50,547 bases of DNA from Gaiellaceae bacterium (GCA_036271615.1 DATBAH010000084.1:1-50547), one strand, 5' to 3'; counted from the first letter of the stretch, positions 12,456 to 50,036 are shown. Made by a program: numbers and translations. The notes: generated by a model not told the origin, from the sequence alone.

Positions 12456-12627
12456 CCGGTAGTTCGAGGCGTCGGTCGCGTAGAGCGCACGGCTGCCGGC
12501 ATCGAAACGGACCTCGCCCTCGATCGCAGCGCGGAGGTCAGCGGCGAGGCTTCGGCGATCGTGGGTTCGCTTCGGAGTCGTGATGTTCAGCGTGTCACGG
12601 CCGGGCGAGTCGAGTTCGGCTCGGACG

Positions 12628-13428
12628 CTAGGCGTTCTGCGCGACGAAGGCGAGCGTCCGCTGCCAGGCGTCGTCGGAAGCCGCCTGGAACTCCTCCTGC
12701 TTGCGGTCGAAGAAGCTGTGCGGCACGCCCTCGAACTCGACGAGCTCGTACTCCTTCCCCGCGTCGCTCAGCGCCTGCTCGAACGCGACGTTGTCCTCGT
12801 GCGGGATCCCCTGGTCGGCCCCTCCCTGCAGGGCCAGGATCGGCGCGTCCAGGCGCGGCACGAGGTCGATCATCCGGCTTGGCCGGCCGTAGAACCCGAC
12901 AGCTCCGGCGAGCCCGTGGCCCCACGCCGCCGCCGCCCAGGAGCCGCTGCCACCGAAGCAGAAGCCGACGGTGAAGATCGCGCTGCAGCCGAGCGCGCGC
13001 AGGTCGCGGACGCAGGCGCCGACGTCGGCCTGCACCTGCTCTTGCGTGAGCTGCTGCACGAGCGGCATGTAGTCCCAGTCGTCCGGGCGCTTGCCGACAC
13101 CGGCGCTGCGGCCGAAGTAGTCGAAGGCGATCGCGGCGTGGCCGCGCTCGGCGAAGCGAAGCGCGAGCTCCTCGTAGAAACGGTAGAGGCCGCGGACGTC
13201 CGGCAGGATCACGACTCCTGTCGCCAGATCTCCGTCGGGACCAGCGGCGCCTCCGGCGCCGCGGTCTCCCGCCCGCGCATCGGCGGCTTCGCCGTCGATG
13301 CTTCCAGGCAAGGCGCGGAATGCCGCGAAGCGGTTGCCGCCCTCGCTCTCGAGAACGAGGTCGTCGTGCGAGACCGCGGCGCCCGAGATCCGCGGGATCG
13401 GCGGCTCGGAATCGAGGTCGAAGCACAT
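12628..13428 (-). CDS. Dienelactone hydrolase family protein
   Basis: The track ORF 12628..13950 is over-extended. The DLH-like sequence begins at MCFDLDSEPPIPRISG (ATG 13428) and contains the nucleophile elbow GFCFGG and C-terminal HSFFD. Confidence 0.85.
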   Translation of the reverse strand: MCFDLDSEPPIPRISGAAVSHDDLVLESEGGNRFAAFRALPGSIDGEAADARAGDRGAGGAAGPDGDLATGVVILPDVRGLYRFYEELALRFAERGHAAIAFDYFGRSAGVGKRPDDWDYMPLVQQLTQEQVQADVGACVRDLRALGCSAIFTVGFCFGGSGSWAAAAWGHGLAGAVGFYGRPSRMIDLVPRLDAPILALQGGADQGIPHEDNVAFEQALSDAGKEYELVEFEGVPHSFFDRKQEEFQAASDDAWQRTLAFVAQNA

Positions 13429-13480
13429 GGCTGCGAGCGTACGAAAGGAGCCGCACTCTCTGCGGCGTACCCTGAGTGCG

Positions 13481-13675
13481 GTGGACGACGAGTCGCAGCG
13501 CGAGGAGATGAACGAGGCGATCCGCGCACAGCGCGAGCGGGGAGCGGTTCCGCGCTCGATGCTCCCGCCCGAGGACGAGCTGCCGGAACAGCCCTCGCCC
13601 GTGGCCGAGCCGACGCCTGCCGAGCCTCCTCCGCCGCCGAAACGCAGCCTCTTGGACCGGTTCCTGGGACGCTGA
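13481..13675 (+). CDS. Small hypothetical protein (Pro/Glu-rich); start uncertain
   Basis: High third-position GC through the frame ...MNEAIRAQRERGAVPRSMLPPEDELPEQPSPVAEPTPAEPPPPPKRSLLDRFLGR. No recognisable family. GTG 13481 is chosen because ATG 13427 would overlap the divergent DLH start. Confidence 0.3.
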   Translation: MDDESQREEMNEAIRAQRERGAVPRSMLPPEDELPEQPSPVAEPTPAEPPPPPKRSLLDRFLGR

Positions 13676-13717
13676 GCCCGTAACCAGAACCCGCCCGCGA
13701 CGTTTACCGAGCGTCGC

Positions 13718-15859: not shown

Positions 15860-15925
15860 CGCGCCGCGGAGCCCGGACGGCCGCCTCCTGCCCCGGACTC
15901 CGCGCTGCAGGGCGCTGCTTGGCGG

Positions 15926-16201
15926 CTAAGCGGCCTTGTTCCTTCCGAGCATCTTCGACCACCACTCGTCCTCGTCGACGAGGCTGGGGCGAACCTTCGG
16001 CCCACTCGGCCACCGCGGCAACGTGACGCGCCGCTGCTTCGTGAGCTCCTCGAGCACGGCTGCGCGCAGGGTGTGCAGCCGCTCGTGCTGTGCTTCGATC
16101 TCACGGGCCAACTCGTTGCGCTCGGCCTCCCGGCGTGCGACGTCGTGCTCGACCTCGAGCAGGCTGTCCCTGTGGCTGAGCTCCTCGACTGTGCTGGACA
16201 T
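15926..16201 (-). CDS. Small coiled-coil hypothetical protein (91 aa)
   Basis: ATG 16201 is preceded by GGAGGAGGAG. High GC3. The sequence MSSTVEELSHRDSLLEVEHDVARREAERNELAREIEAQHERL... matches no family I recognise. Confidence 0.45.
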   Translation of the reverse strand: MSSTVEELSHRDSLLEVEHDVARREAERNELAREIEAQHERLHTLRAAVLEELTKQRRVTLPRWPSGPKVRPSLVDEDEWWSKMLGRNKAA

Positions 16202-16382
16202 GCGGCGCTCCTCCTCCACTCGGTGTACCGGACGCCGCAGTCGTCCTGTGCTCAATCGTCGTCCTCCATGCGGTTTCCGGCGATCCCTCGAACTGACGTA
16301 ACTGCGTCGCGGTCCGCTCTATCAAGTTCGAGGCTTTTTCCGCCGATAGAAGCCGTGTGACTTCCCTGCGGCCCGTCGGGAA

Positions 16383-18890
16383 TTGGGCATGAGCGCCTCG
16401 TCCGAACAAGAGCGCATGCCCCAGCGCCAGCTCGGCGAGCTGATGACCGAGCTCGGGCTGATCAGCGAGGAGCAGCTCGCAACGGTGCTCGAGGTGCAGC
16501 AGCAGTCGAAGCGGCCGCTCGGCCAGATCATCGTGGAGCTCGGATTCGCCTCGGGCGCCGCGGTCGCGCACGCGCTTGCGCTGCAGAGCGGCGGCGCGCT
16601 CAAGACCGAGTACGGCTTCGCGCTCGGCGTTCCGCCGAAGGACGAGGACGACGCCGACGGCGGAGAGGCGACGAGCGGAAGCCTCCCGAAGCTCCGGTTG
16701 GCGTCCACGGCCACCGCGCCGCCGGCGCGGCCGAACCTCGCGCCGGGCGACGACGCGGAAACCGATGGCGCCCCCGCTGCGGAGGCCGCCGAGGAGCCCG
16801 CCCCTCTCGCCGCCCTGCCTGCGGCACCGGAGCCCGAGCCCGTCGAGGACGTCGCGGCGGTCGAGCAGGTCGAGCAGGTCGAGCAGGTCGAGGACGTTCA
16901 GGACGTCGAGGAGACCGAGACCGATTCCGTCGAGGAGACCCCGGAAGTCCCCGTCGAGACCGAGGAAAGCCCGGTCGCCGAGGAGCCGGACGAGATGGCC
17001 GACGAGGCCGAGACGATCCCGGAAGCACCGCCCTTCGACGAAACCGATCCGCTCGAGCTGGAGCAACTGCGGGCCGAGATCGGAGACCTCCAAGCCGCCC
17101 TCGCCGAGGCCCGGGCTGCTGCTCTCGCCGAGCAGGAGCGCTTGCAGGCCGAGGCTTCGACGCACGAGGCCGCGGTCGTCGAGGCGAAGACCGAGTGGGA
17201 GCAGGAGCTCGCCCGGCTCCAGGACGAGCGCGACGAGGCCGCCGCAGAGCTCGAGCGGCTCCGGACCGCGCTCGCCGAAACGCAGACCGAACGCAGCGAG
17301 GACCTGACGCAGCTCCGGGAGGAGCGCGACCACGCCACCGCAGAGCTCGAGCGGCTGCAGACCACGCTCGCCGAGACGCAGACCGAGCGCAGCGAGGACC
17401 TGGCGCGGCTCCAGCAGGAGCGCGACGACGCCACCGCAGAGCTCGAGCGCCTCCAGACCACGCTCGCCGAGACGCAGACCACGCACCACGAGAACCTCGC
17501 GCGGCTCCAGCAGGAGCGCGACCACGCCACCGCAGAGCTCGAGGGTCTCCAGACGGCGCTCGCCGAGGCCGAGAGCTCGGCCGCCGAGCACGAACGCCGG
17601 CTCACCGAGGTCCACGAACGGCATTCCACCGAGCGAGACGAGCTCACCGGCCACCGCGACCGGCTCCAGCAGGAGCTCGAGGACACGCTCGAGCGGCTCG
17701 CCGCCGTCGGCCCCGCCGCCGAGGAGCGGGACCGGCTGCGCGCCGAGGCCGAGCAGCTCGAGTCCGCCCTGGCCGAGACGCAGACCACAGCGGCCCGAGA
17801 GCGCGACCGGCTGCTCGGCGAGGTCGACCGGCTCGACAGCGCCCTCGCCGAGGCGCAAGCCGAGCGCGAGCAGGAGCTCGCCCGGCTCGGCGCCGAGCAC
17901 GAGCGCGACCGGGAAGAGCTCGACCGGCTCCAGACCGCAGTCGCCGAGGCACAGGCTTCGGCCGCCGAGCAGGAGCGCCGGCTCGCCGACGAGCAGGAAC
18001 GGCACGCCGGCGAGCGCGACGAGCTCACCGCCCAGCGCGAACGGCTCCAGGAGGAGCTCGGGAAGGCATTCGAGCGGCTCGCCGTCACAGGCCCCGCCGC
18101 CGAGGAGCGCGACGAGCTGCGCACCAGGGTCGAGCTGATCGAGACGACGCTCGCCGAGGTGCGGGAGAGCTCGACGGCCGAGCTTCGGAGCGTCGTCGAG
18201 GAGCGCGACAAACTGACGGCCGAGCTCGACGAGGCACACGAGTTGCTGCGGCAGGCCGAGCGCGTGCGCGAGTCGCAGATCGCACTCGAGGCCGAGCGCG
18301 ACCGTGCCGTCAGCGAGCTGGAGCGGCTCCAGACCATCGCAGCCGACACACAGGGAGAGCTCGAGGAGCAGACCCGCCTGCTCGCCGAGGAACAGGATCT
18401 CCACCACGCCGACCGCGAGACGCTCCTCGCCCAGCGCACGGTGCTCGAGCAGGAGCTCGGCTCGGCGATCGAGCAGCTCGCAGCCGCAGCGTCCGCAGCC
18501 GACAAGCGGGAGCAGGAGCTGCAGCTCGGCTCCCAGCGGCTCGTCGACGCGCTCGACGCCGTCCGCGGGCTCGCGGCCGAGCTCGTACCCGGCAGCGAGG
18601 AGCTCCCGGCAGAGCCCGTGGCCGACGAGGCCGAGGCAGAGACGGAGGACACCGCCCAGGAGACCGAGTGGATCGAGTCCGTCCCGGAGTCCGAAGAGGT
18701 CGACTACTCACTCTTCGTGCCGGGACCGAACGGATACGAGCTGGTTCCGCAGACCGGAATTCCGCCGCAGCCCGGCCAGACGGTCGAGCTCGTCCTCCCC
18801 GACCGCGAGGAGCCGGCCGTCTTCGAGGTCGTGCGCAGCGGCCGCACGCTCCCCGGCGGAGACATCTGCGTCTATCTCGCGCAGGTCTAA
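16383..18890 (+). CDS. MshEN (c-di-GMP-binding, GspE-N-like) domain protein with a ~650-aa repetitive coiled coil and a short C-terminal beta-rich domain
   Basis: The N-terminus has two 24-aa motifs, QLGELMTELGLISEEQLATVLEVQ and PLGQIIVELGFASGAAVAHALALQ, joined by the 5-aa spacer QQSKR. An acidic linker and heptad-rich ELERLQ repeats follow. The start may be ATG 16389 rather than TTG 16383. Confidence 0.85.
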   Translation: MGMSASSEQERMPQRQLGELMTELGLISEEQLATVLEVQQQSKRPLGQIIVELGFASGAAVAHALALQSGGALKTEYGFALGVPPKDEDDADGGEATSGSLPKLRLASTATAPPARPNLAPGDDAETDGAPAAEAAEEPAPLAALPAAPEPEPVEDVAAVEQVEQVEQVEDVQDVEETETDSVEETPEVPVETEESPVAEEPDEMADEAETIPEAPPFDETDPLELEQLRAEIGDLQAALAEARAAALAEQERLQAEASTHEAAVVEAKTEWEQELARLQDERDEAAAELERLRTALAETQTERSEDLTQLREERDHATAELERLQTTLAETQTERSEDLARLQQERDDATAELERLQTTLAETQTTHHENLARLQQERDHATAELEGLQTALAEAESSAAEHERRLTEVHERHSTERDELTGHRDRLQQELEDTLERLAAVGPAAEERDRLRAEAEQLESALAETQTTAARERDRLLGEVDRLDSALAEAQAEREQELARLGAEHERDREELDRLQTAVAEAQASAAEQERRLADEQERHAGERDELTAQRERLQEELGKAFERLAVTGPAAEERDELRTRVELIETTLAEVRESSTAELRSVVEERDKLTAELDEAHELLRQAERVRESQIALEAERDRAVSELERLQTIAADTQGELEEQTRLLAEEQDLHHADRETLLAQRTVLEQELGSAIEQLAAAASAADKREQELQLGSQRLVDALDAVRGLAAELVPGSEELPAEPVADEAEAETEDTAQETEWIESVPESEEVDYSLFVPGPNGYELVPQTGIPPQPGQTVELVLPDREEPAVFEVVRSGRTLPGGDICVYLAQV
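17226..17580 (+). repeat. Tandem 96-bp (32-aa) in-frame repeats, ~3.7 copies, inside the coiled-coil gene
   Basis: Units start at 17226, 17322, 17418 and 17514. The peptide unit is ERD[EHD]A[AT]AELERL[RQ]T[AT]LAETQTERSEDL..L.., read directly from the DNA. Confidence 0.9.
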
Positions 18891-27635: not shown

Positions 27636-28823
27636 CTACTTGTTGCGGGAGCGGCCCATGCTGAACTTCGTGGGCCGGCTCGCGGCGGCGAGATCCTCGA
27701 GCGAGCTCGGCGGCGGGGTGAAGCCGCCGGCCGGCGTGGGCTCCTCGGCCGGCTCGGGCGCAGGAGCCTCTGCTTCGGCCTCGACCTGCGGCTCGGGCTC
27801 CGGCTCGGGCTCGGGCTCGGGCTCCGGCTCCGGCTCCGGCTCCGGCTCGGCCTTGCCGTCATTCGCCGCTGCGAGCAGCTGCTCGGCCTCGCGGCGGGCG
27901 GTGTCCGAGATGTCGCGAGCCTCGAAGCCCGCCTGCGCCAGGAGCTCGTCGGCGGACGCGCGGGCCCCTTCGGCACTCTGCGCGGCCTCGGCACTCGCCC
28001 GGGTGACGACGTCTTCTGCCTCCGACCGCGCGGTTCCCAGCAGGGTTTCGGCCTCGGAGCGCGCGTTGCCGAGCATCGACTCCGCCTCGGCGCGAGCGTT
28101 GCCGAGCAGCGACTCGGCCTCCGAGCGCGCGGCGTTCAACGCGTTCTCCGCCTCCGATCGGAGTCCCTCCGTGGCGGATTCGGCCTCGGTGCGAGCGGCG
28201 GAGACGAGAGCGTCGGCCCCGGAGCGGGCAGCCTCTAGAGCCGCATCAGCCTCCGAGCGCGCCGAGCCCGCCACGGACTCGGCCTCGTTCCGGGCGGCGG
28301 CGAGAAGGCCCTCGGACTCGGCCCGCGCCTCCTCTTGCAATGCGTGTGCGCGTTCGCCCGCGGCTGCGACCGTCGCTGCGGCCTCCTGCTCCACGTTGCT
28401 CAGGCGCCCCTGCGCCTCGCGGAGTGCCTCGGCCGCCTGGCCGCGCTGCTCCTCGAGCTCCTGCTGGACCTGCGTCGCCTCCTGGCGCGCCGCTTCGAGG
28501 TCGCGCTTGAGGTGGTCGAGCTCCTTCTCGCGCTCGTCGAGGGCGAGCCGGCGCAGCCGGACCTCCTCCTCGGTGCGCGTGATGCGATCCTTCGCCGTCT
28601 CCTGTGCGTCACGCTCGATCCGGTCGGCGAGCTCGACCGCAGCGCGTACGAGCTCGAGCGCCTCGAGTCGCGCGGAACGGTTGTCCGCGGTGAAGCCACC
28701 GGAGCCGACATCGGGAGCGTCGGGATTCGGAGGCAGACGCTCGAGCTGAGGGAGCGCGATCACGTCTGCGACAGGCTCGTGCTCGTGCCGAAGCTCGCCT
28801 TCTTCTCTTGCCACGGGATCCAC
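27636..28823 (-). CDS. Repeat protein: N-terminal coiled coil, about eleven 11-residue (hendecad) ARSEAE-type repeats, (EP)n tract, basic C-terminus
   Basis: ARNEAESVAGS ARSEADAALEA ARSGADALVSA ARTEAESATEG LRSEAENALNA ARSEAESLLGN ARAEAESMLGN ARSEAETLLGT ARSEAEDVVTR..., read from the track protein. High GC3. Confidence 0.7.
   Translation of the reverse strand: MDPVAREEGELRHEHEPVADVIALPQLERLPPNPDAPDVGSGGFTADNRSARLEALELVRAAVELADRIERDAQETAKDRITRTEEEVRLRRLALDEREKELDHLKRDLEAARQEATQVQQELEEQRGQAAEALREAQGRLSNVEQEAAATVAAAGERAHALQEEARAESEGLLAAARNEAESVAGSARSEADAALEAARSGADALVSAARTEAESATEGLRSEAENALNAARSEAESLLGNARAEAESMLGNARSEAETLLGTARSEAEDVVTRASAEAAQSAEGARASADELLAQAGFEARDISDTARREAEQLLAAANDGKAEPEPEPEPEPEPEPEPEPEPQVEAEAEAPAPEPAEEPTPAGGFTPPPSSLEDLAAASRPTKFSMGRSRNK
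27790..27849. repeat. Hexanucleotide microsatellite (GGCTCS)x10 encoding the (EP)n tract
   Basis: ggctcg ggctcc ggctcg ggctcg ggctcg ggctcc ggctcc ggctcc ggctcc ggctcg, read directly from the sequence. Confidence 0.9.
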
Positions 28824-40049: not shown

Positions 40050-40768
40050 CGCAGGATGTTGACCGCCCTCGCTACGACCATCACCGCAAGGGAGAGGCTG
40101 ATCGCCGACTGGACGAGCATCAGCATCTTCGCCCAGCGGCTGAGCGGCATCGTGTCGGTCGGGCTGAACGCCGCCGCGTTCGTGAACGAGACGTAGAGGT
40201 AGTCGAGGAACTGCGGCTGCCAGCCCGACTCGACGAGGGCGGGCTCCGTGTGTTGCGGGAAGAGGAAGTCGCGCTCGCGCGGCACGCACGTCGGGCGGTT
40301 GAGCGGCCCGCCGCCGTCGAGCTGCCAGTACCAGAGGCCGAAGAGGAGGACGTTCACGACCCACATGTGGACGGCTGCCCGCAGGAGCGGCGCAGCGGTC
40401 GCCGGGTCGCCGGCCCCGTTCACGAGCAGGTGGACGAGGAGGATGATCGAGGCGGCGTTCGCGGCGCTGACGATCGCGATCGTGGTGAGGGCGAGCCGGC
40501 GGCGCGTGAGGTGGAGCGCCTGCGGCCCCCAGTCGAGAGCGCGTGCGAGGCGGCCGCTCGTCCGGATCAATCCGAGGGCGAGAAGGACGAGCAGCGTCAA
40601 AGCCGGAACGACCCAGCGGATGAAGCTGAAGGCTCCTGCGCCGTGCCCTGCGATGAATTGGGTCGGCAGGTCCGCGTAGAGCACGGCGGCGGTGACGAGC
40701 GCCGCGGCGGGCAGGAGCGGCGACTCCCCGAGGTCCTCGGAGGGCGCGAGCACGCGGCGCACGTCCAC
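40046..40768 (-). CDS. DUF1345-like integral membrane protein
   Basis: 240 aa, multiple TM helices, C-terminal FLDYLYVSFTNAAAFSPTDT motif as I remember for DUF1345. GTG start. Confidence 0.75.
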   Translation of the reverse strand: MDVRRVLAPSEDLGESPLLPAAALVTAAVLYADLPTQFIAGHGAGAFSFIRWVVPALTLLVLLALGLIRTSGRLARALDWGPQALHLTRRRLALTTIAIVSAANAASIILLVHLLVNGAGDPATAAPLLRAAVHMWVVNVLLFGLWYWQLDGGGPLNRPTCVPRERDFLFPQHTEPALVESGWQPQFLDYLYVSFTNAAAFSPTDTMPLSRWAKMLMLVQSAISLSLAVMVVARAVNILR

Positions 40769-40832
40769 GGATCGAGGCTACGGAAAGCGTCGGCGGGCGC
40801 CCGCCCGGGACGGGGCTACAATCCGCGTTCCA

Positions 40833-40905
40833 GCCCTCTTAGCTCAGCTGGTAGAGCACCTCCATGGTAAGGAGGGGGTCGACGGTTCGAGTCCGTCAGA
40901 GGGCT
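40833..40905 (+). tRNA. tRNA-Thr (GGU)
   Basis: GCCCTCT/AGAGGGC acceptor, GCTC/GAGC D stem, CCTCC-ATGGTAA-GGAGG anticodon arm, GACGG-TTCGAGT-CCGTC T arm, discriminator T. Confidence 0.92.
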
Positions 40906-41346
40906 TTAAAGTCCCTGCAAATCAGCATTTCCTGTTGTCTGTGCTGAATCGCAGGTAAAGAGGGGGTCAGTATGGGAGGCCCGAAGTGCCTCCTCTGCAG
41001 GGATTTCGCTACGGAAGGCTCTTCCGATTTGGTGCCTCTGACCACGCAAGGTCGCACCAGGGTCGCACGCGCTCCGACATTGCCCGCCCGGATCGCTGCC
41101 TTGTCGGCGACCGGAAACCCGGACTAGAACCTCGCCGCGCTACCCGCGATCGACCACGTGCTAGAGAGGGCGTCGGCTACTGCGTCACAAAGAGGTCGAG
41201 TCCCGCGAACCGAGGGCCCGCAGGAGAGGCGAGAACTCATCGCCAGCAAGCGCCCCGATTCGAGCGATCTGGTCTCAAGCAAACGACGCCGGAAGCTCTG
41301 GCTCGAGCAAGCGCGAGCAGCCAACGAGTGCGGGAAACGCGCGCTA

Positions 41347-41505
41347 CTAGCGGCCGAGTCGCGTCCGGCGGCGGATTCCGAGTCGCCTCTGCAGTGCGCG
41401 ATCCTCCTCGCCGTCCTTCCTTGCCGCCCACACGAACACGCCGAGGACAACTGCAGCCATAAACGCAACACTGACCACGACGATGATCACGGCTGCGACC
41501 CTCAT
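41347..41505 (-). CDS. Possible small single-TM protein (52 aa)
   Basis: My translation is MRVAAVIIVVVSVAFMAAVVLGVFVWAARKDGEEDRALQRRLGIRRRTRLGR. It is below the ORF-track size cut-off and has a weak RBS. Confidence 0.3.
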   Translation of the reverse strand: MRVAAVIIVVVSVAFMAAVVLGVFVWAARKDGEEDRALQRRLGIRRRTRLGR

Positions 41506-41537
41506 AAAGACAGGACCTGCCCGTTAGGTCGGGATGT

Positions 41538-42347
41538 CTACCGCGAGCTCATGGTGCCAATGATGCGGGGATGCCCGTCGACGATCGGTGTCGCGTGCAG
41601 TTCGAAGCTCGTGCAGTCGGTCAAGGCGGCGAGGCTGGCGAGCGCGCCGCTCGAGAACTGCCAGTAGACGAAGCGGTCGTGCGGGTAGACGGCGCCTGGC
41701 GCGGGAGCTTGCAGGGCGCCGTCTTCGCTGCCGCCATCGTCGCGCACACCGTAGGTCTCGATCAGTATCCGGCCGCCTTCGGCAAGCCGGCTGGCGAGAA
41801 TGCGGAGTAGCCCGAGTGGATCCTCGACTCGGTGCAGGATGCCGAAGCAGAAGATGAAGTCGAAGCGCTCTAAGGTGCCGTCGAGAACCGAGGCGTCCGT
41901 GCGTTGGTACTCGATCCCGGAGCCCAGCAGACCGTGGATCGCGTTGAAGCCCTCTCCACCTTCGAGCTCGACCTTCCAGCGGTCCCGCACCCAGTGAACG
42001 TACTGCTCGTTGTCGATCGCAAGCACTCGCCTCGCTCCACGTGCCTCGGCCAGGAAGCTGTAGAAACCGTCGAACGCCCCGACATCGAGCACCCGAAGGC
42101 CGGCGAAGGAATCGGGGATCGAAGCGAGCCTGTAGCCATGGTCGCGGGCGGCCCCCGGTGTGTACAGGCCGAGGCCGCGGTTCAAAGCGAACGTATGGAA
42201 CCAAAACGGCACCGAGTCGAGCACCCTGCAGGCCCGGCCCGGATCGACCTCGATCGGCACCTCAGCCGCAACCTCGCGCTCAGAAGGCCAACAATCCGTT
42301 CTCAGCTCGCGTCGCAAGTTCGCTCCCCTGTCCGGGTGCATCACCAA
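41538..42347 (-). CDS. Class I SAM-dependent methyltransferase (CmoB/DUF1698-like)
   Basis: Motif I VLDVGAFDGFYSF; post-I AIDNE; FDFIFCFGILHRVEDPLGLL. Confidence 0.85.
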   Translation of the reverse strand: MVMHPDRGANLRRELRTDCWPSEREVAAEVPIEVDPGRACRVLDSVPFWFHTFALNRGLGLYTPGAARDHGYRLASIPDSFAGLRVLDVGAFDGFYSFLAEARGARRVLAIDNEQYVHWVRDRWKVELEGGEGFNAIHGLLGSGIEYQRTDASVLDGTLERFDFIFCFGILHRVEDPLGLLRILASRLAEGGRILIETYGVRDDGGSEDGALQAPAPGAVYPHDRFVYWQFSSGALASLAALTDCTSFELHATPIVDGHPRIIGTMSSR

Positions 42348-42478
42348 AGCCCGGAGCCAGAGAAGCAGCGCAGGGCGATACTCGCGGACCCTATTGAATC
42401 TTGGTCTACCGACTCGGGGGCACCGCTACCTTCCACAGCAGCAGGCGATGATCGATCGATGACGCGAGGAGACGAGAC

Positions 42479-42898
42479 ATGAAGATCACCCGCAACGTCG
42501 ACGAGACCGGCCGCGGACCGGCCGACTGGTTTACCGGCGACGTCTACATCGACACGATCGCGACACCCTCCGACGCTTCGCGGATCGGCGCGGCCAGCGT
42601 CCACTTCACCCCCGGCGCTCGCACCGCGTGGCACACCCACCCGCACGGCCAGACGATTTGGGTCACCGAGGGCATCGGGCTGTGCCGGCGCGAGGGCGGT
42701 CCGGTCGAGGTGATCCGGCCGGGCGACCGGGTCTTCTTCGAGCCAGACGAGAACCACTGGCACGGCGCCGCACCGATGCGCCTCATGACGCACGTCGCCG
42801 TGCAGCGGGCAGACGAGCAGGGGAATGTCGTCAGCTGGGGCGAGCACGTCAGCGACGAGGAGTACGCGCAGGCGCCGTCGATCGGAGGTGAGCGCTGA
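42479..42898 (+). CDS. Cupin domain protein
   Basis: GARTAWHTHPHGQTIWVTEG...GDRVFFEPDENHWHGA, the two cupin His-containing motifs. Confidence 0.85.
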   Translation: MKITRNVDETGRGPADWFTGDVYIDTIATPSDASRIGAASVHFTPGARTAWHTHPHGQTIWVTEGIGLCRREGGPVEVIRPGDRVFFEPDENHWHGAAPMRLMTHVAVQRADEQGNVVSWGEHVSDEEYAQAPSIGGER

Positions 42899-43932
42899 TG
42901 CGCGCAACCGTGATGCACGGCGCCGGCGACGTCCGGATCGAGAACGTCCCCGACCCAAGCATCACCGACCCGACCGACGCGCTCGTCCGCGTGACCCACG
43001 CCTGCATCTGCGGCAGCGACCTGTGGCCTTACAAGACGCTCGAGTACAGCGATAGCGGCCGAGTGATGGGCCACGAGGCGATCGGCGTCGTCGAGGCCGT
43101 CGGCAGCAACGTCCGCAACATGAAGGCGGGCGACCTGGTCGTGATGCCGTTCGCGTTCTCGGACGGGACCTGCGAGTTCTGCCACGACGGCCTGCAGACA
43201 GCGTGCGTGCACGGCGGCTTCTTCGGCAACGCCGAGGTTCCAGGCGCGCAGGCCGAGGCTGTGCGCGTGCCGCTCGCCGACGGCACGCTGTACGCCCTGC
43301 CGGTGGGCGACGACGACCCGCTGCTGCGCTCGCTCCTGACGCTTTCAGACGTGATGGGTACCGGCCATCACGCGGCCGTCGCCGCCAAGGTCGCACCCGG
43401 CAAGCGAGTCGCGGTCGTCGGCGACGGCGCGGTCGGACTCTGCGGCGTGATCGCCGCCGGGCGGCTCGGAGCGGAACAAATCATCCTCCTCGGCCGCCAT
43501 CCCGACCGGATTGCGCTCGCGCGCGAGTTCGGAGCCACCAATGTCGTAAGCGAACGCGGCGACGAAGCCGTCGAGCGCGTCAAAGAACTGACCGGCGGCT
43601 ACGGCGTCCACTCTGTACTCGAGTGCGTCGGCCTCGAGCAGTCGGAGCTGACGGCGATCGAAATCACCCGACCCGGCGGCGCCGTCGGCCGGGTCGGCGT
43701 CCCGCAGAAGGAGAAGCTCCCCGCGTCGCAGCCCGCGTTCTACAACAACATCAGCGTCAGCGGCGGTCCCGCCCCGGTCCGCGCCTACATCGAGGAACTG
43801 CTGCCCGACATCATCGAGGGACGGATCGAGCCGGGCCGGGTCTTCGACCGCGTCGTCGACCTCGACGGTGTACCCGACGGCTACCGGGCGATGAACGAGC
43901 GCGAGTCGATCAAGGTGCTCGTGGAGCCGTAG
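42898..43932 (+). CDS. Zinc-dependent alcohol dehydrogenase family protein
   Basis: CGSDLW..GHE catalytic Zn motif, structural Zn region (DGTCEFCHDGLQTAC), Rossmann VAVVGDGAVGL. ATGA-type overlap with the cupin gene. Confidence 0.92.
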   Translation: MRATVMHGAGDVRIENVPDPSITDPTDALVRVTHACICGSDLWPYKTLEYSDSGRVMGHEAIGVVEAVGSNVRNMKAGDLVVMPFAFSDGTCEFCHDGLQTACVHGGFFGNAEVPGAQAEAVRVPLADGTLYALPVGDDDPLLRSLLTLSDVMGTGHHAAVAAKVAPGKRVAVVGDGAVGLCGVIAAGRLGAEQIILLGRHPDRIALAREFGATNVVSERGDEAVERVKELTGGYGVHSVLECVGLEQSELTAIEITRPGGAVGRVGVPQKEKLPASQPAFYNNISVSGGPAPVRAYIEELLPDIIEGRIEPGRVFDRVVDLDGVPDGYRAMNERESIKVLVEP

Positions 43933-44074
43933 GCTCGACGCCGAGTACAGACGTCTGCAGGTCGCACCAAGGTCGCACGCCGGCGCGAGACGCGACGAAA
44001 CGCGGCGACCCGGGAGAAACCCGAAGCAGGATCGTTGAGCCGAATCCCGCATGAATCGACCCCCTCCCCACGTT

Positions 44075-44117
44075 CATGGTAAGGAGGGGGTCGACGGTTC
44101 GAGTCCGTCAGAGGGCT
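44075..44117 (+). repeat. Partial tRNA-Thr copy (anticodon loop to discriminator), 43/43 identical to 40863-40905; att-like direct repeat
   Basis: CATGGTAAGGAGGGGGTCGACGGTTCGAGTCCGTCAGAGGGCT. The upstream sequence lacks the acceptor and D arms, so it is not a functional tRNA. Confidence 0.85.
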
Positions 44118-44121
44118 CTAC

Positions 44122-44150
44122 AAAAGCCCCGCAAAACGGGGCTTTTCTTT
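44122..44150. terminator. Bidirectional intrinsic terminator immediately after the partial tRNA copy
   Basis: AAAA-GCCCCG-caaaa-CGGGGC-TTTTCTTT. Confidence 0.65.
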
Positions 44151-44308
44151 GAACTGACCCCACAGTGTTGGCGGTGTGACGCGCGTTTGGAGCAGTTTGT
44201 GGAGCTCCCAAGTCGAGAAGCGCTCCTGCCGGGTCAATGTAGTACGCGAAGCATCAGGACTCTCCGTGCTAAGGACGCCTCGCCTGGACCAGCGTTCCGG
44301 AACGACCC

Positions 44309-44795
44309 GTGAGGGGTCGTCGCGATACTTGGGGCGTGGACGCTGAGGCGAGAGTTCGGGAGGTCGTCGATCGAGAGACAAAAGTCGGCGACATCATGGT
44401 GTCTATCGAACACGTCGGTTCGACGTCGGTTCGACGGCGGTTCCAGGGCTGGCAGCGAAGCCTACTGTTGACCTCGTCGTTGTCGTTCAGCCCGACGATG
44501 TCGGGGTAGCGATCGAGCGGCTTGCCGCGATCGAGTATGTCCACAAAGGCAACCTGGGTGTCGAAGGGCGCGAGGCGTTCGACGTCCCGCCAGGAGAGCG
44601 CCGTCATCACCTCTATATCTGTCGGGCCAATAGCGATGAGTTACGGGCCGAACTCACCTTCCGCAACCGCCTCCGTGACGATCTGTGTCCGACTATGCGG
44701 CGCTGAAGAGACAGCTTGCGATCCGGTTTCGTGATGACCGCGCGGCTTATGCTGATGCCAAGAACGACTTCGTGACAGTCGTGATCAGGTCATAG
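44309..44795 (+). pseudogene. GrpB (UPF0157) family gene disrupted by an 11-bp tandem duplication and a second 1-nt frameshift
   Basis: Three frames joined give ...IEHVGST[dup]AVPGLAAKPTVDLVVVVQPDDVGVAIERLAAIEYVHKGNLGVEGREAFDVPPGERRHHLYICRANSDELRAELTFRNRLRDDLCP/DYAALKRQLAIRFRDDRAAYADAKNDFVTVVIRS. GTCGGTTCGAC is duplicated at 44414-44424 and 44425-44435. Confidence 0.7.
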
Positions 44796-44871
44796 GAGAG
44801 GAAGCTCGCCTCGGCCAGTGTCCCGGAATGACCCCCGATCGACGGGAGGCCCTTCCACCTAGCGGGCTGGG

Positions 44872-46752
44872 CTACTTCCCGACTTTAAGGGCGACCCTTG
44901 AGCCTTCCTTGAGGTGCCTGCCTGGCTTTGGGCTTTGTCCGACGACGTGACCTCGGTTCTTCGTTGTCGATTTGACTCTTGTGATCTTGCCGACGCTGCA
45001 GTGATGGCTCTTGATCGCCTTCTTGGCCGAAGCGAGCGACTTGCCCTTCACCTTCGGCACGACGCACACCGTCGTGTGCTTTGGGGGGACCGCGGCGGGG
45101 CCGAACGTCACGGTAACGAACGTCACACCGAGATTCGGATCGGCACTGGGGTTGAGCGTGACGACGCATGTGCTGCTGCCGCCGGAGCAGCCGCCGCCCG
45201 ACCAGTTCGAGACCGTCGACCCGTGCGCGGCGGTTGCGGTGAGGGTTACCTGCGTCAGGCCAAAGAACTCCGCCTGGCACGAGGTTCCACCAACGGTGCA
45301 GTCGAGGGGGGATGGGATACCGGGTGGGCTACTGGTCACAGTGCCTGACCCGGGGCCGTCGGCTTGGACGATCAAGTTCGCTGGCAGTTTGTTGAAGGCC
45401 GCGGTGATCTTCGTGTTGGCGTTCACCGTGACTGCGCAGGTAGAGGAGCCGGAACAGGGGGATCCAAGCCAACCCCCGAAGGCGTTGGCCGGCGCCGGGT
45501 TCTCCGTCAGGGTCACCTGTGTTCCGGCAGTGACGTTCATCGAGCACGCGGTGGCTGCGACGCCGCAGTCGATGCCGGCCGGGCTGCTGGTGACGGTGCC
45601 CGAACCGACCTCCGGCCCGAGCCCGACGGTCGAAACGGTCAGCGTGTATTGGGGCGGTGCCGGGAGCTGGGTCCAGAACGCTTGGTCGCCGTCGTCGATG
45701 GGTGTGCTGCCGGCGGGGTTCGAGGCGACGACCTCCGCGCAGTACCCGGCGCCGGGGGTGAGTCCTGTGACGTTGATCGAGACGTCGTGGAACGTGCCGT
45801 CCATAGCCGGGAAGATCTGAGGTGCGGTTGAATCCGCAGGCACACCGGAGGCCCCTGCGGTTGTGCACCACTCTGAACTGGCCAGGTCGTACTTCACGAC
45901 GTAGCTCGTGCTCTGGCCGGCGGGATTGATATCCCCTTCGACTGTCGCAGTCGAGTCTTCGGTGGAGAACCCGCCAAAGGTGTCCGCTGTTGGCAGGCCT
46001 TGCATCCACTCGATCTGTCCGCCTGAATCCGAGCCGTCCGCATTCGTGGCTGAGAGCTGCGCGCAATAGCTCGCTCCGTCCGTCAGCCCACTTAAATCGA
46101 CTGCGACGTCGTGGAACGCGCCATCCGCCGGGTCCGGGAGACCCACCGACGTGGCGGTGGTCACATTTGCTGGGGAGCCGGAAGTTCCGTCGCTCGAGCA
46201 CCAGACCGAGCTAGCGAGGTCATATGCCGCCGAATACGTGGTCGTTTCCCCCGCCTGATTCACATCCCCGCGAACCTGAGCATCAGCGGAGCCAACCGAC
46301 ACGGCATCGGACGTGTCAGCAGTCGCTGCACCCTGTGTCCACTCGACCTGGCCGCCGTCAGCTGAGCCCGGAGCGCCGTTCAGGGCGAGGATGTGAGCAC
46401 AGTAGTCGGTCCCCTCGGTTAGGCCGGTCAGGTCGAGCGAGACGGGATGGAACTCACTGTCAAAGCCGACGTCGTACCCGGGGATGTTGTGAGCGGGCGA
46501 GCCCGACGCGCCCCCACTTGAACACCAGGTCGAACTCGCAACGTCGTACAGCACATCGAAGCTGGTGTCCTCTCCCTCCGGGTTGATTTCGCCGTTTACC
46601 GTGGCAGTCGTCGGACCGGTAGAAACGGTGTGGAGCGTGACGGCGCTGGGGGGCGCCGCCGATGACGCAGCCGGGAGGGCCAGCACAAGCGAGCCTGCCA
46701 GGAGAACGATCGCAACAAAAGACAACGCGTGGGAAAGCCGGATGGTCATCAT
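44872..46752 (-). CDS. Secreted multi-repeat protein: signal peptide, three ~105-aa Cys-pair (FN3/Ig-like) repeats, two InlB-B-repeat-like Cys-rich domains, C-terminal PASTA domain
   Basis: Repeats share V.G.INP.G..TSY...YDLASS.WC...G.SG.PA....FHDV...L.GLT.G..YCA. Then GSGTVTSSP.GI.C....C......T.VTLTA twice. The C-terminus is VPKVKGKSLASAKKAIKSHHCSVGKITRVKSTTKNRGHVVGQSPKPGRHLKEGSRVALKV. Confidence 0.85.
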   Translation of the reverse strand: MMTIRLSHALSFVAIVLLAGSLVLALPAASSAAPPSAVTLHTVSTGPTTATVNGEINPEGEDTSFDVLYDVASSTWCSSGGASGSPAHNIPGYDVGFDSEFHPVSLDLTGLTEGTDYCAHILALNGAPGSADGGQVEWTQGAATADTSDAVSVGSADAQVRGDVNQAGETTTYSAAYDLASSVWCSSDGTSGSPANVTTATSVGLPDPADGAFHDVAVDLSGLTDGASYCAQLSATNADGSDSGGQIEWMQGLPTADTFGGFSTEDSTATVEGDINPAGQSTSYVVKYDLASSEWCTTAGASGVPADSTAPQIFPAMDGTFHDVSINVTGLTPGAGYCAEVVASNPAGSTPIDDGDQAFWTQLPAPPQYTLTVSTVGLGPEVGSGTVTSSPAGIDCGVAATACSMNVTAGTQVTLTENPAPANAFGGWLGSPCSGSSTCAVTVNANTKITAAFNKLPANLIVQADGPGSGTVTSSPPGIPSPLDCTVGGTSCQAEFFGLTQVTLTATAAHGSTVSNWSGGGCSGGSSTCVVTLNPSADPNLGVTFVTVTFGPAAVPPKHTTVCVVPKVKGKSLASAKKAIKSHHCSVGKITRVKSTTKNRGHVVGQSPKPGRHLKEGSRVALKVGK

Positions 46753-47201
46753 CGCTGCGGGCCACCGACGGTAGCACCCACAAAGATCGCACTACAAACC
46801 GAAACGCGAGATCAGGATGCAGCGACTACCTCTCTGCGGCTCCGCCTTCATGGAGTCCCGCGCTCCAACCTCCCTGAACCAGGATCGCGACCCCCCACGA
46901 GCCCAACGGCTGCTACAGGGCTATGGATCTGGCCACTCCTGATCGGTCTCCCCCCAGCTGTACCGAACCTACCGTCGCAGACGCGAACGCGACCGCTTCG
47001 CCCCTTGAATAGCGGGAAGCCCGCTCCAAACACCTGCGAGGGGACCGACTGCAACGGCCACGCACGGGCGCCGAATGATGGAGCATTCGTGGAGCAAAGG
47101 GGACGCAAGGGGCGGCAAAACGGCGCAACGGTCGAAATTGCGACCACGCCTAGTCCGGCGAAATTCGTTGCCCCCACCGCCGGTAGTTGCGCACACGACG
47201 A

Positions 47202-47244
47202 CATGGTGAGGAGGGGGTCGACGGTTCGAGTCCGTCAGAGGGCT
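47202..47244 (+). repeat. Third partial tRNA-Thr copy (42/43 identical; A to G in the anticodon-loop position)
   Basis: CATGGTGAGGAGGGGGTCGACGGTTCGAGTCCGTCAGAGGGCT. Confidence 0.85.
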
Positions 47245-47282
47245 TCAGAGAAGTTCCTGCCCGCGAGGTACCCCCGAACCGA

Positions 47283-47639
47283 TCAGCCATGGATCGTGAT
47301 GATGTAGCCGTCGGGATCCTCGAAGGCGAAGGTCAGCCCGAACGGACCCTCGAAGGGGGACGTGACGATGGCGACGCCGGCGTCGGCCAGCTTGTCGTGA
47401 AGGGCGCTTGGATCGTCGGCCTTGAGCCAGAGTGCGACGCCCCAGCCCAGGTGCTCGACTTCCGAGAGGTCCACTGAGGGCACACGAAGGGCGAACGGGA
47501 TTGGTGTCGTGGCAAACACGACCGCCTCGGGTGGGCTCTGTGCCGCGCGCTCGAGTCCCAACTCGTCGGTGTAGAAGCGGGCCGAGGTCTCGAGGTCGCT
47601 CACCTGTAGGGCGATGAAGCTTGGTCCAATGGTCTTCAT
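47283..47639 (-). CDS. VOC (glyoxalase/bleomycin-resistance) family protein
   Basis: Start MKTIGPSFIALQVSDLETSARFYTDELGL (ATG 47639, AGGAGGG SD). C-terminus FAFEDPDGYIITIH. Confidence 0.85.
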   Translation of the reverse strand: MKTIGPSFIALQVSDLETSARFYTDELGLERAAQSPPEAVVFATTPIPFALRVPSVDLSEVEHLGWGVALWLKADDPSALHDKLADAGVAIVTSPFEGPFGLTFAFEDPDGYIITIHG

Positions 47640-47659
47640 GGTCCCTCCTTGTTCGTTAG

Positions 47660-47699
47660 TATCAGGCACCCTGATAATCTTATATCAGGACACCTGATA
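47660..47699. promoter_or_regulatory. Two 17-bp perfect palindromes (TATCAGG-N3-CCTGATA), likely MarR operators, in the VOC-marR divergent spacer
   Basis: 47660-47676 TATCAGGcacCCTGATA and 47683-47699 TATCAGGacaCCTGATA. Centres are 23 bp apart. Confidence 0.6.
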
Positions 47700-47713
47700 C
47701 GTAAAGGAACCCG

Positions 47714-48163
47714 ATGGGAGCCATTGACAAGCCGGAACCGAGGACCGAGGAGATGTCCGGCTACCTCATCAAGCGAGCACAAGCCGCCCTTCACGTCTGC
47801 CTGGAGGAGATCACCTCTGCGTACGGCCTCGGCATCCCCCAGTTCGTCGTCCTGTCCTTCCTGGCCGAAACACCAGGCCTAGCTAATGCCGACCTCGCCC
47901 GGCGGGCGTTCGTGACCCCGCAATCGATGAACGAGGTGCTCCAGCAGCTCGAGTCGACCGGCCTGGTCGAACGTCGCCGGAACCCCACGAATGCCCGCAT
48001 CCTCAACGCCTACCTGACCCGCAGTGGCGCCAGGAAACGGAAGGCCGTGAACAGTCAGGTCCGGGAGTTGGAGGCACGCCTCTTGAGCGGCCTGACGAGC
48101 GACGAGCGCCAGGCTCTAAATCGGGCGCTCCTGACGATCATCGACAACGTGACGCGCTCGTGA
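47714..48163 (+). CDS. MarR family transcriptional regulator
   Basis: Winged-HTH pattern FVVLSFLAETPGLANADLARRAFVTPQSMNEVLQQLESTGLVERRRNPTNARI. The start may be the downstream ATG (MSGYLIKR). Confidence 0.9.
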   Translation: MGAIDKPEPRTEEMSGYLIKRAQAALHVCLEEITSAYGLGIPQFVVLSFLAETPGLANADLARRAFVTPQSMNEVLQQLESTGLVERRRNPTNARILNAYLTRSGARKRKAVNSQVRELEARLLSGLTSDERQALNRALLTIIDNVTRS

Positions 48164-48287
48164 GCAGCAACGCCACACGAGTAGGGGCATCCCATAACGC
48201 GCGAGCGTCTTCAAGCGCGCGGGTAGCTCCCTTCAAGCCCGCCCTCAGCGCCACACGCCGACCTGCCGGAAAGGAAAGAAGCACGTC

Positions 48288-48725
48288 ATGAGCACTCTCA
48301 ACGAAGAAAGCCTTGCCAACGGTCTCGTCGTCATCGGCGAGGAGGCAGTCGCGAAGAGCAACGACGGATTGTTCTACGACTACTACACCGACGACTACCA
48401 GCTGCACAGCCCGGCCGGCCAGTTCAATCGCGAAGAGATCAGAACCTACTTCGCTGCGCTACGGGAGAGCTTCACCGACTTCACGATCAAACGAGCGCAG
48501 GTCCTCGTCGACGGCAACTTCGTCAGCGCGCGCACCGTGATGGCCGGCCGCTTCGACAAGGAGTTCGCCTACACGCCCATCGGCACCGTCCAACCAAACG
48601 GCCAGCACGTGCAATGGGAACTGATCAACATCTTCCGCTATACCGACGACGGTCGCCTCGTCGAGGAGTGGGTGCAGACCGACACGTACGAGCTCCTACG
48701 GCAACTCGGCGCAGTCGAGAGCTGA
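48288..48725 (+). CDS. SnoaL-like / ester cyclase (NTF2-fold) protein
   Basis: 145 aa. The pattern YYTDDYQLHSP...NFVSARTVMAGRF...INIFRYTDDGRLVEEW is typical of ester-cyclase NTF2-like proteins. Confidence 0.8.
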   Translation: MSTLNEESLANGLVVIGEEAVAKSNDGLFYDYYTDDYQLHSPAGQFNREEIRTYFAALRESFTDFTIKRAQVLVDGNFVSARTVMAGRFDKEFAYTPIGTVQPNGQHVQWELINIFRYTDDGRLVEEWVQTDTYELLRQLGAVES

Positions 48726-48836
48726 CGGCGGCCAGTCGCGACGGGGTCAGGACGCAGCAGCGTTCTCCGTCTAAGAGGAAGCATCTTGGTTCTCACAACA
48801 GGGGAGCCGAACACATAAAGCGGAGGAGGGGGAACG

Positions 48837-49715
48837 ATGGGAGAGACTTGGCTTATCACTGGTTCGTCGCGCGGCCTTGGCCGGGCGCTGGTCGAGGCGG
48901 CCCTTGACGCCGGGGATCAGGTCGTGGCTACGGCCCGGCATCCGGAGCAGCTTGCGGAGCTCGCCGAGCGCTACGGGGATCGTGTATCGCCGGTGGCTCT
49001 CGATGTCACCGATCCGAATGCGGTGGCGGCTGCTGTGACTGCCGGCGTCGAGAGCTTTGGCGGGCTCGACGTGGTGGTCAACAACGCCGGTTATGCGAAC
49101 GTTGCCCCAATCGAGACCGGTGCGGCCGCGGACTTCCGTACGCAGTTCGAGACGAACTTCTGGGGCGTCTACAACGTTTCTCGCGCCGTTATCCCGGTGC
49201 TTCGCCGCGGTGGCGGTGGGACAATCGTGCAGTTCTCGTCTGTGGGCGGACGGGTCGGTGGATCACCGGGTATCGCCAGCTATCAGGCGGCCAAGTTCGC
49301 CGTCGATGGCTTCAGTCGCGTGCTCGCTGCTGAGACGGAGCCGTTTGGCATCAGGGTGGTGGTCGTCGAGCCGAGCGGCTTTGCGACCGATTGGGCGGGA
49401 TCCTCGATGGAGGTCTACGACGTCCCCGACGGCTACAAGGCCACGGTCGGCCCCCGGATCGAGCAGATGCAAGATCCGGACTCCCCTTATCGGGCAGGCG
49501 ATCCGGCGCGAGCAGCTGAGATCATCGTCAAAACGGTCAAACGCAAGAACGCGCCGTCGCATCTTCTGCTCGGCGTCAACGCGGTCGAGGCTGCGTTGCG
49601 CTACTCGCGCAGCCAGCTCGACGAGGCAACGACGTGGCGTGCGGTAGGTCGCTCGGCTGATTACGCCGAGCCCTACCCGGCCGAGTTTCCGCCCGACAGC
49701 CCCGCGACGGCCTGA
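48837..49715 (+). CDS. SDR family oxidoreductase
   Basis: TGSSRGLG cofactor motif, NNAG, catalytic S...YxxxK (SSVGG...YQAAKFAV). GGAGGAGGGGG SD. Confidence 0.92.
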   Translation: MGETWLITGSSRGLGRALVEAALDAGDQVVATARHPEQLAELAERYGDRVSPVALDVTDPNAVAAAVTAGVESFGGLDVVVNNAGYANVAPIETGAAADFRTQFETNFWGVYNVSRAVIPVLRRGGGGTIVQFSSVGGRVGGSPGIASYQAAKFAVDGFSRVLAAETEPFGIRVVVVEPSGFATDWAGSSMEVYDVPDGYKATVGPRIEQMQDPDSPYRAGDPARAAEIIVKTVKRKNAPSHLLLGVNAVEAALRYSRSQLDEATTWRAVGRSADYAEPYPAEFPPDSPATA

Positions 49716-49835
49716 CTCGCACAATCTCTCTGCGGCCGCAGGCCTTCGGCCCAGCGGGCGCAGCCGGTGGCAACGGGTGGCAAATCGAACACATCGAGGA
49801 AGCATCGGGTGATCGTGAAAGACGTACTGCCCGCG

Positions 49836-50036
49836 CTAGATGCGATCTCGAACGAGCTGAACGACAAGGCGCACCTCTCGCTCGCCCAGCAGCGGCTCGG
49901 TCGTGCGCACGATTCCGAGCTGGCCGCCAATCTCCAACCGATCGCCAATCTCAAGCGGCTCGTCACGGCTCAAATGACCGGTCGCGACCACCTCGTCGCC
50001 GCGCCGGAGCTCATAGCGGTAGTCGACCCCGGCCAC
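49836..50036 (-). CDS. Small hypothetical protein (66 aa)
   Basis: MAGVDYRYELRRGDEVVATGHLSRDEPLEIGDRLEIGGQLGIVRTTEPLLGEREVRLVVQLV looks globular. The antisense ORF 49767..50288 has equal GC3 but decays into Arg-rich sequence. The strand choice is tentative. Confidence 0.4.
   Translation of the reverse strand: MAGVDYRYELRRGDEVVATGHLSRDEPLEIGDRLEIGGQLGIVRTTEPLLGEREVRLVVQLVRDRI

Follow-up and report, generated by a model that had tools for sequence, protein, structure and literature searches.

The window analysed here, a 50,547-nt stretch of DNA from a Gaiellaceae bacterium (GCA_036271615.1 DATBAH010000084.1:1-50547), contains a single tRNA-Thr(GGU) gene (40832/40833-40905/40906 in the ARAGORN and Rfam calls) which is followed by two further copies of its own 3′ portion. 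The repeat comprises 43 nt: it opens with tRNA position 31, where the 5′ strand of the anticodon stem ends, and closes with the discriminator (position 73). All three of these attachment (att) cores are in direct orientation, with spacers of 3169 and 3084 bp. We consider it very likely that three small integrative elements, now decayed, were inserted serially by tyrosine integrases at tRNA-Thr(GGU) and form an accretion array from 40906 to ~49792; we call them islet 1, islet 2 and segment 3. Two families of arms flank the cores: family A, with the tandem motif GGTCGCAC-N3-GGTCGCAC (D8) at both ends of islet 1, and family B. Related loci in other genomes and metagenome contigs carry L numbers, and L002 is the type locus of the integrase discussed below. 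The features are as follows:

40833-40905, plus strand: the complete tRNA-Thr(GGU) gene, in which 40863-40905 (positions 31-73 of the tRNA) form att core copy 1 and thereby attL of islet 1
40906-41075, plus strand: left (P′) arm of family A, termed class A, with an imperfect hairpin at 40915-40954; conservation ends a few nt past D8
41007-41096, minus strand: integrase-tail-like stretch centred on D8, resembling the C-terminal 32 aa (357-388) of the L002-type integrase
41120-41175: flanks of a deleted copy of a 66-aa gene, with ~210 nt of the gene missing; local alignments to L135, L003 and L125
41538-43932: islet 1 cargo (Pfam), namely an S-adenosylmethionine (SAM) methyltransferase (41538-42347, minus), a cupin (42479-42898, plus) and a Zn-dependent alcohol dehydrogenase (ADH; 42898-43932, plus)
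43959-44074, plus strand: right (P) arm of family A, with D8′ AGGTCGCACcaaGGTCGCAC at 43959-43978; homologous to the right arm of L046
44075-44117, plus strand: att core copy 2 (43/43), attR of islet 1 and attL of islet 2
44118-44235, plus strand: left (P′) arm of family B, with a terminator hairpin at 44122-44150 and the motif TGGAGCagtttgTGGAGC at 44188-44205
44386-46752: islet 2 cargo (Pfam), namely a GrpB pseudogene fragment (44386-44640, plus) and a secreted PASTA/InlB-B-repeat/fn3 protein (44872-46752, minus)
47079-47201, plus strand: right (P) arm of family B, with TGGAGCattcgTGGAGC at 47079-47095, then three GCAA-type repeats of 10-nt period at 47102-47128
47202-47244, plus strand: att core copy 3 (42/43, A37 to G within the anticodon-loop segment), attR of islet 2
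47245-49749: third segment, low in GC, with (Pfam) a glyoxalase/VOC protein (47283-47669, minus), MarR (47714-48163, plus), a SnoaL-like protein (48288-48725, plus) and a short-chain dehydrogenase/reductase (SDR; 48837-49715, plus)
49750-49792, plus strand: family-B right arm in truncated form, CCCAGCGGGCGCAGCCGGTGGCAAcgGGTGGCAAATCGAACAC, not followed by a core; as a fourth att remnant it closes segment 3
49836-50036, minus strand: gene of a conserved 66-aa all-beta protein, the distal end of what is resolvable in the window

None of 100 dinucleotide-preserving shuffles contained any match to the 43-nt repeat, and neither ARAGORN nor Rfam called a tRNA at copies 2 and 3. The sequence upstream of these two copies has no match to the tRNA 5′ half, and a scan of the window revealed no fourth core copy, even degenerate. 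An earlier note on this DNA had reported the copies at 44075-44117 and 47202-47244, with these match counts and spacers, and had held that they lack matching 5′ halves and are not complete tRNA genes; both statements stand, as does its cargo list of a methyltransferase, a cupin with ADH, a broken GrpB gene and a secreted repeat protein, which Pfam upholds. Its end of the array at 47244 has to be moved outwards, for the array goes on to ~49792 with the third segment and the truncated family-B right arm. At a permissive threshold Rfam reported only two tRNAs, and the class-A hairpin corresponded to no known RNA. The sole difference of copy 3, A to G at window position 47208 (tRNA position 37), is not seen elsewhere, the base being A in all other aligned family-B right arms.

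For the comparison with relatives, the DUF1345 gene just left of the tRNA served as anchor and gave 80 loci from the genome collection, nearly all of them soil metagenome-assembled genomes of Gaiellaceae/Thermoleophilia. The DUF1345 - tRNA-Thr arrangement is kept in ~20 of the 80. The window's cargo, that of segment 3 included, was found downstream of tRNA-Thr in none of these ~20 syntenic relatives; their downstream 10 kb have almost nothing in common, and the right flank differs in almost every one. Even the closest DUF1345 relatives, 91-93% identical at the amino acid level (L202-L204, metagenomic), have other flanks, and an exact-protein look-up of the DUF1345 and ADH products returned no contig with an identical protein. 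Because the relatives share the left flank yet differ downstream, the tRNA-Thr(GGU) locus is a hypervariable integration hotspot in Gaiellaceae. Identical content in relatives had been named beforehand as the result that would overturn an integrative origin, and what we observed is variation, with the cargo absent throughout.

Relatives do have integrases at this site. In L002 the tRNA is followed, 2-5 nt from its end, by the stop codon of a gene for a 391-aa tyrosine recombinase (PF00589, E = 1.9e-15); tyrosine integrases also stand beside the same tRNA-Thr in L004 and L064, and the metagenome loci L092 and L094 have them too. L002, L092 and L094 share D8 as well as the core with family A, and in all three D8 lies at +62, within the 3′ end of the integrase gene, where it encodes ..ARATLVRP.. 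of the C terminus. The L002-type integrase gave no match to a Pfam arm-binding domain, and an N-terminal domain of this kind is putative. With a hidden Markov model (HMM) built from the L002, L004, L064 and L076 integrases and run on six frames, with tblastn and with Pfam on the open reading frames (ORFs), no tyrosine integrase was detected in the 50.5-kb window, a weak tblastn match at 12545-13372 being a dienelactone hydrolase and not a recombinase. The islet ORFs had no recombinase, relaxase or other transfer-related Pfam match. The earlier finding that no integrase gene is present is thus borne out by the six-frame HMM search, tblastn and Pfam. There is one possible, weak trace: the stretch 41007-41096 resembles the L002 integrase tail (tblastn with the window as the only database, 53% over 32 aa, E = 0.008) and may be the remnant of an integrase 3′ end.

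Islet 1 (40906-44117) measures 3212 bp from core to core. Read as a 22-nt repeat, AGGTCGCACCARGGTCGCACGC, D8 lies at 41049-41070, 144 nt right of the tRNA end, and at 43959-43980, 96 nt left of copy 2. The class-A arm (~170 nt from the tRNA to D8) contains a 15-nt mini-copy of anticodon-arm sequence, GGTAAAGAGGGGGTC, at 40954-40968 and the D8 motif GGTCGCACcagGGTCGCAC at 41050-41068, and it aligns with L003, L046, L036, L013, L005 and ~20 metagenome loci; these arms all end within a few nt of one point just past D8, and the DNA beyond differs. On the right side, 51 aligned family-A arms display three blocks that are at least 90% conserved, namely D8′, AAACGCGACGA..CGCGGCGAC and CCCGCATGAATCGACCCCCTCC(T/C)CACGTT, between spacers of ~40-60% conservation. 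The last of these blocks, nearly invariant as CCCGCATGAATCGACCCCCTCC(C/T)CACGTT, adjoins the core, and the similarity among the 51 arms stops exactly at D8′, with none left of it. An inverted repeat, TCGACCCCCTCC at 44056-67 versus GGAGGGGGTCGA at 44083-94, spans the anticodon loop. The architecture of islet 1 recurs with other cargo in L046 (8.2 kb), which reads tRNA, class A, D8, cargo, D8′ and a core with a ~50-nt deletion.

In lambda attP, the arm-type sites P1/P2 and P′1-3 flank a core. Family A resembles it in having direct repeats in both arms ~60-150 bp from the core, an inverted repeat round the presumed overlap and an integrase gene adjoining the P′ arm, and by this analogy its layout would be a lambda-type attP. 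D8 is accordingly a predicted arm-type site and the inverted repeat a predicted core-type site of the L002-type integrase. Since islet 1 keeps every conserved cis block, it could in principle be excised by a cognate integrase supplied in trans.

Islet 2 (44118-47244, ~3.1 kb) belongs to family B, whose arm repeats are TGGAGC and the GGTGGCAA type. TGGAGC-N5/6-TGGAGC is found at both of its ends, on the left 70 nt past copy 2 and on the right 106 nt before copy 3. Folding confirmed the hairpin at 44122-44150 (dG -18.2 kcal/mol, z = -3), which the built-in terminator scan missed, probably as its stem extends into the T-run. The earlier note had seen here a terminator of the sort expected of a native tRNA flank. 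The hairpin is real; it is not evidence of a native flank, because it is part of the conserved family-B left arm (terminator plus TGGAGC motif), which begins at this point and recurs with its terminator after tRNA-Thr in L023, L053, L058 and L071 and after partial cores in L130 and L189. The family-B right arm aligns with the right arms of L119, L171, L163, L169 and L192. As for the cargo, the closest homologue is 82% identical and has another downstream context (L201), while the GrpB fragment at 44386-44640 is partial (profile positions 32-105 of 159) and has frame breaks. Within this fragment, at 44412-44440, an 11-nt unit, ACGTCGGTTCG, occurs ~2.5 times in tandem, and this repeat may be one of the lesions that break the gene. 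Provided that tRNA position 37 falls within the overlap, its change in copy 3 (A37G) would block strand exchange, and islet 2 is then probably locked.

Segment 3 (~2.5 kb, 47245-~49792) is closed by an arm whose core has been deleted, and it is dead. The first ~20 nt past copy 3 resemble the family-B-type flank of L071. The att remnant at the other end is recognised solely by its arm, since CCCAGCGGGCGCAGCCGGTGGCAAcgGGTGGCAAATCGAACAC hardly differs from the inner portion of the right arms of family B, which stands 70-90 nt before the partial cores in L119 and L171. L003, the closest genome relative, matches the window from 40051 through 41075 and then only from ~49835, and the distance from the GGTGGCAA repeats at the end of segment 3 to the next gene is that of D8 in L003. 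These sequence relationships suggest a deletion between two similar repeat pairs at the end of segment 3.

Around other cargo, both arm families are found again at this tRNA, in genomes of Gaiellaceae as well as on metagenome contigs. An exact-pattern scan of metagenome contigs for D8 retrieved at least 120 loci, from soil metagenomes, and the dominant layout among them is D8′, 96 nt and a partial core without the tRNA 5′ half, exactly as at copy 2. Where a class-A left arm is followed by another core on the same contig, that core has a family-A right arm in 8/10 cases, a count only partly independent of the D8 selection: the eight comprise the window and L046, neither of them selected by D8, together with L136, L150, L163, L167, L178 and L199. 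Mixed junctions occur as well. A family-A right arm, core and family-B left arm are joined in the window, L130 and L189, and a family-B right arm, core and class A in L163 and L192, so that the two families meet in both orders, as predicted by independent serial integration of two element families. Core-to-core sizes of elements with class-A or D8 starts range from ~1.4 to 11.9 kb, and arrays of at least three cores are present in L153, L178 and L199. When core-to-D8 junctions with at least 1.3 kb readable past D8 are considered, 3/22 have an integrase, all of them of the type with D8 at +62 (3/5); none of the 17 class-A junctions does.

Composition agrees with an accessory block. From ~40750 to 49750 GC is 0.60-0.71, lowest (0.60-0.63) around 44000-45000, compared with 0.67-0.74 in the upstream core genes; GC at third codon positions (GC3) is 0.77-0.89 in the cargo versus 0.92-0.95 in three neighbouring core genes. 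The GC and codon-usage profiling that had been proposed for this locus thus places the cargo below its neighbours in both measures.

We propose that the target is the segment from the anticodon loop to the 3′ end of tRNA-Thr(GGU) in the Gaiellaceae chromosome, and that each insertion would rebuild the tRNA from the element's 3′ 43 nt and push the earlier copy downstream, which would also set the order of the insertions. A single intact tRNA followed by partial copies would be found because each insertion rebuilds the gene and displaces the older copy. Integration by a tyrosine integrase at an anticodon-centred site, as described for other islands (PMC4383910), would explain this anatomy. The left half-sites, CACGTTC in attP and CACCTCC in the tRNA, are partly similar and fit such a model, in which the crossover would be placed at the anticodon. 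If boundaries are drawn from D8 to D8 instead of from core to core, the partial tRNA copies are left unexplained, and we therefore rejected this division. The interpretation offered in the earlier note, that the copies are integrase footprints left by tandem accretion of decayed or trans-dependent islets, is supported by the hypervariable locus, by the integrases of relatives and by the matched arm pairs.

The islets would be comparable to cis-mobilizable elements (CIMEs), which have lost the genes for integration and transfer and have kept attL and attR, and which accrete by repeated site-specific integration, e.g. those related to ICESt1/ICESt3 in Streptococcus thermophilus (PMC5704250). We regard the three elements as CIME-like because none encodes a recombinase. 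Like CIMEs, they stand in tandem at the 3′ end of the target gene; islets 1 and 2 retain attL and attR, each with core and both arms, whereas segment 3 is without its distal core, and Pfam and HMM searches of the islet ORFs agree with a loss of the integration, excision and transfer genes. They differ from the described examples in their host, an uncultured actinobacterium of the Gaiellaceae, in their target, tRNA-Thr(GGU), and in that no conjugation module is known for their parents; besides, the integrase-less form outnumbers the integrase-bearing one in the loci sampled here.

The Islander collection, which is built on the tRNA-fragment principle and recognises an anticodon-centred attP class 'A', lists 3919 islands and 125 tandem arrays with at least two members, four of them with at least three (PMC4383910). 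As in Islander islands, an intact tRNA gene (tDNA) is followed here by displaced 3′ fragments in direct orientation that start in the anticodon arm, and presence varies among relatives; an integrase in each element is what the window lacks. Islander takes only array members with an integrase of their own, and an array such as this one, in which no member has one, is filtered out by design. Related arrangements are the tycheposon islands of Prochlorococcus, where degenerated elements and extra partial tRNAs lie beside a tRNA (bioRxiv 10.1101/2020.12.28.424599), and the ssrA-linked island arrays of Dehalococcoides (PMC3146451). In both, as proposed here, new elements integrate at a tRNA or tmRNA gene and push older ones outward into a hypervariable island. 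The present array differs from them in its recombinase family and hosts, in its tandem 6-8-mer arm motifs and in that no replication module is seen. An integron gene-cassette array was rejected, since the boundaries are tRNA 3′ halves with ~120-170-nt arms and not attC, and IntI is absent. We also rejected a prophage or phage satellite: the cargo is metabolic, regulatory or surface-related, and 2.9 M viral contigs had no match to the core, D8 or family-B patterns. In a plasmid collection only distant ADH matches were found, and the literature search brought up no work on integrative elements of Gaiellales. Tandem tDNA arrays and decayed elements within them are thus already known; the lineage, the two defined arm families and the integrase-less class-A form as the common one are new.

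Several observations weigh against serial integration of three elements. The window contains no integrase, excisionase or transfer gene, so that the copies have no direct tie to an enzyme, and the tail-like similarity at 41007-41096 is weak and mostly D8 itself. For family B, no element with an integrase was found, the integrase HMM having no match near any family-B arm. The metagenome loci were retrieved by the D8 pattern, which biases the family-A arm frequencies among them and bears in part on the pairing count given above. Arm divergence of ~77-87% is close to host divergence, and long vertical inheritance with turnover of cargo in place is possible. No free or episomal form is documented, viral contigs included. 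Finally, what flanked the tRNA in the ancestral chromosome might have been the succession class A - D8 - 66-aa gene itself; the 66-aa gene is very widespread, highly conserved and not always beside tRNA-Thr.

Among the rival explanations, the one that survives best, although we regard it as doubtful, takes the islets for active mini-elements mobilised in trans, moved between tRNA-Thr sites and genomes by L002-type integrases encoded elsewhere, with islet 1 still live. The lineage would then be defined by a ~170-nt left arm, a ~116-nt right arm, a size of ~1.4-12 kb, variable cargo and no integrase, in the way that miniature inverted-repeat transposable elements (MITEs) depend on full transposons. 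The contrast between 0/17 integrases at class-A junctions and 3/5 at D8 +62 points in this direction, as do the common end point of the class-A arms just past D8 despite the differing DNA beyond, and the block-wise conservation of the right arms, which suggests selection on cis sites. The D8 motif is further present on at least 120 metagenome contigs, with arrays in differing orders, and family-A right arm/core/class-A junctions, which correspond to attP or to a tandem, occur in L096, L126, L144, L172, L178, L191 and L199. Lastly, the cupin-ADH pair recurs in the D8-selected loci L086, L123 and L163, and ADH alone in L130 (ADH 71-88% identical to that of the window at the amino acid level). 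However, no near-identical islet copy was found in a different context, the arm identity of 77-87% is about on a level with host divergence, no sign of circular forms was seen, the window has no integrase, the attP-like junctions could just as well represent a tandem or an attR with a class-A flank behind it, and the sample is biased by its retrieval through the D8 pattern. Only tentatively would we describe the class-A islets as a widespread non-autonomous family of soil Gaiellales which shuffles genes in a cassette-like manner at one tRNA gene, helped by rarer L002-type elements.

A second rival, which we judge unlikely, makes class A - D8 - 66-aa gene the ancestral flank of tRNA-Thr, copied either through a long host-derived attP or by homologous recombination between copies of the flank. 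The 66-aa gene directly follows class A - D8 in at least eight loci (L003, L098, L125, L126, L135, L143, L146 and L175); the whole module comes directly after tRNA-Thr in L003, L125, L143 and L146 and after partial cores in L126 and L135. Homologues of the protein number 720, and the 120 matches listed are 74-100% identical, on contigs of up to 855 kb; conservation of this order (~75% identity and up) suits a resident gene, and in the window the intact copy sits at the distal end of the array, where a native flank is expected. Yet arm-type-like repeats such as D8 are unexpected on the attB side, and in L002-type elements D8 is integrase coding sequence. Relatives show no synteny to the right of the 66-aa gene, the gene stands without a tRNA-Thr within 10 kb in L205 and L209, a second, internally deleted copy of it lies inside islet 1, and class-A starts pair with family-A right arms. 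If the module is ancestral, the left arm of islet 1 needs another explanation, e.g. an attP sharing a long stretch with the host flank. The protein itself has no Pfam or NCBIfam family match; its AlphaFold model is a confident five-stranded all-beta fold (predicted local distance difference test score, pLDDT, 90.8) with no match to a PDB fold at E < 0.2, and no evidence that it is an excisionase was found in Pfam, NCBIfam or the fold search.

The weakest rival, by which the partial copies are decayed tRNA-Thr duplicates or the product of a segmental duplication with no site-specific integration, accounts for direct repeats ~3.1-3.2 kb apart, but it is extremely improbable and effectively refuted, given that both copies begin at exactly tRNA position 31 in the anticodon arm, that the segments between the copies share no other similarity, that two different conserved arm families, found at many loci, lie to the left of the copies and that relatives have integrases at the same site.

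Read as serial integration, a 9-kb atypical accessory block in a Gaiellaceae genome is explained by ordinary integrase-driven island accretion, and tRNA-Thr(GGU) emerges as a general integration hotspot in an abundant, uncultured soil lineage. The two sets of att arms, together with the L002-type enzyme as candidate cognate integrase, could be used to map islands that are skipped by integrase-dependent finders such as Islander, and they are possible parts for site-specific integration in Thermoleophilia. Should the mobilisation in trans prove true, the class-A islets would provide an unusually clear example from nature in which non-autonomous tyrosine-integrase elements are more numerous than their helpers.

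Further observations concern the hotspot in relatives. In L206-L208, loci of the 66-aa gene, a cupin - Zn-ADH pair separates this gene from tRNA-Thr or from what is left of a core, and the cupin-ADH module seems to be a recurrent cargo of the tRNA-Thr hotspot. Two loci with family-B flanks carry, as judged from translations alone, a type I restriction-modification HsdM-like methylase (L023, reverse complement ~10937-12859) and a ~1500-aa ATPase-like protein (L053, reverse complement 10823-17154), cargo that would be defence-like. Short copies of the 5′ side of the anticodon arm, AGAGCACCTCC(A/G)TG.., follow closely on the intact tRNA in L202 (~140 nt past tRNA-Thr), L203 (~50 nt past), L009, L036 and L038. 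These fragments represent the left half of the site, in contrast to the 3′-half copies of the window, and excision or elements of other types may have left them behind. The neighbourhood is also used by a mobile element of another kind: in L001, an IS110-family transposase gene (PF01548/PF02371; reverse complement 11267-12385) starts ~400 nt downstream of tRNA-Thr, and L009 has a related segment (up to 91% amino acid identity by tblastx) ~1.8-2.9 kb downstream of the tRNA. Upstream in the window and unrelated to the tRNA locus, short tandem repeats that look in-frame occur at 16859-16885 (9-nt period) and 27789-27840 (12-nt period).

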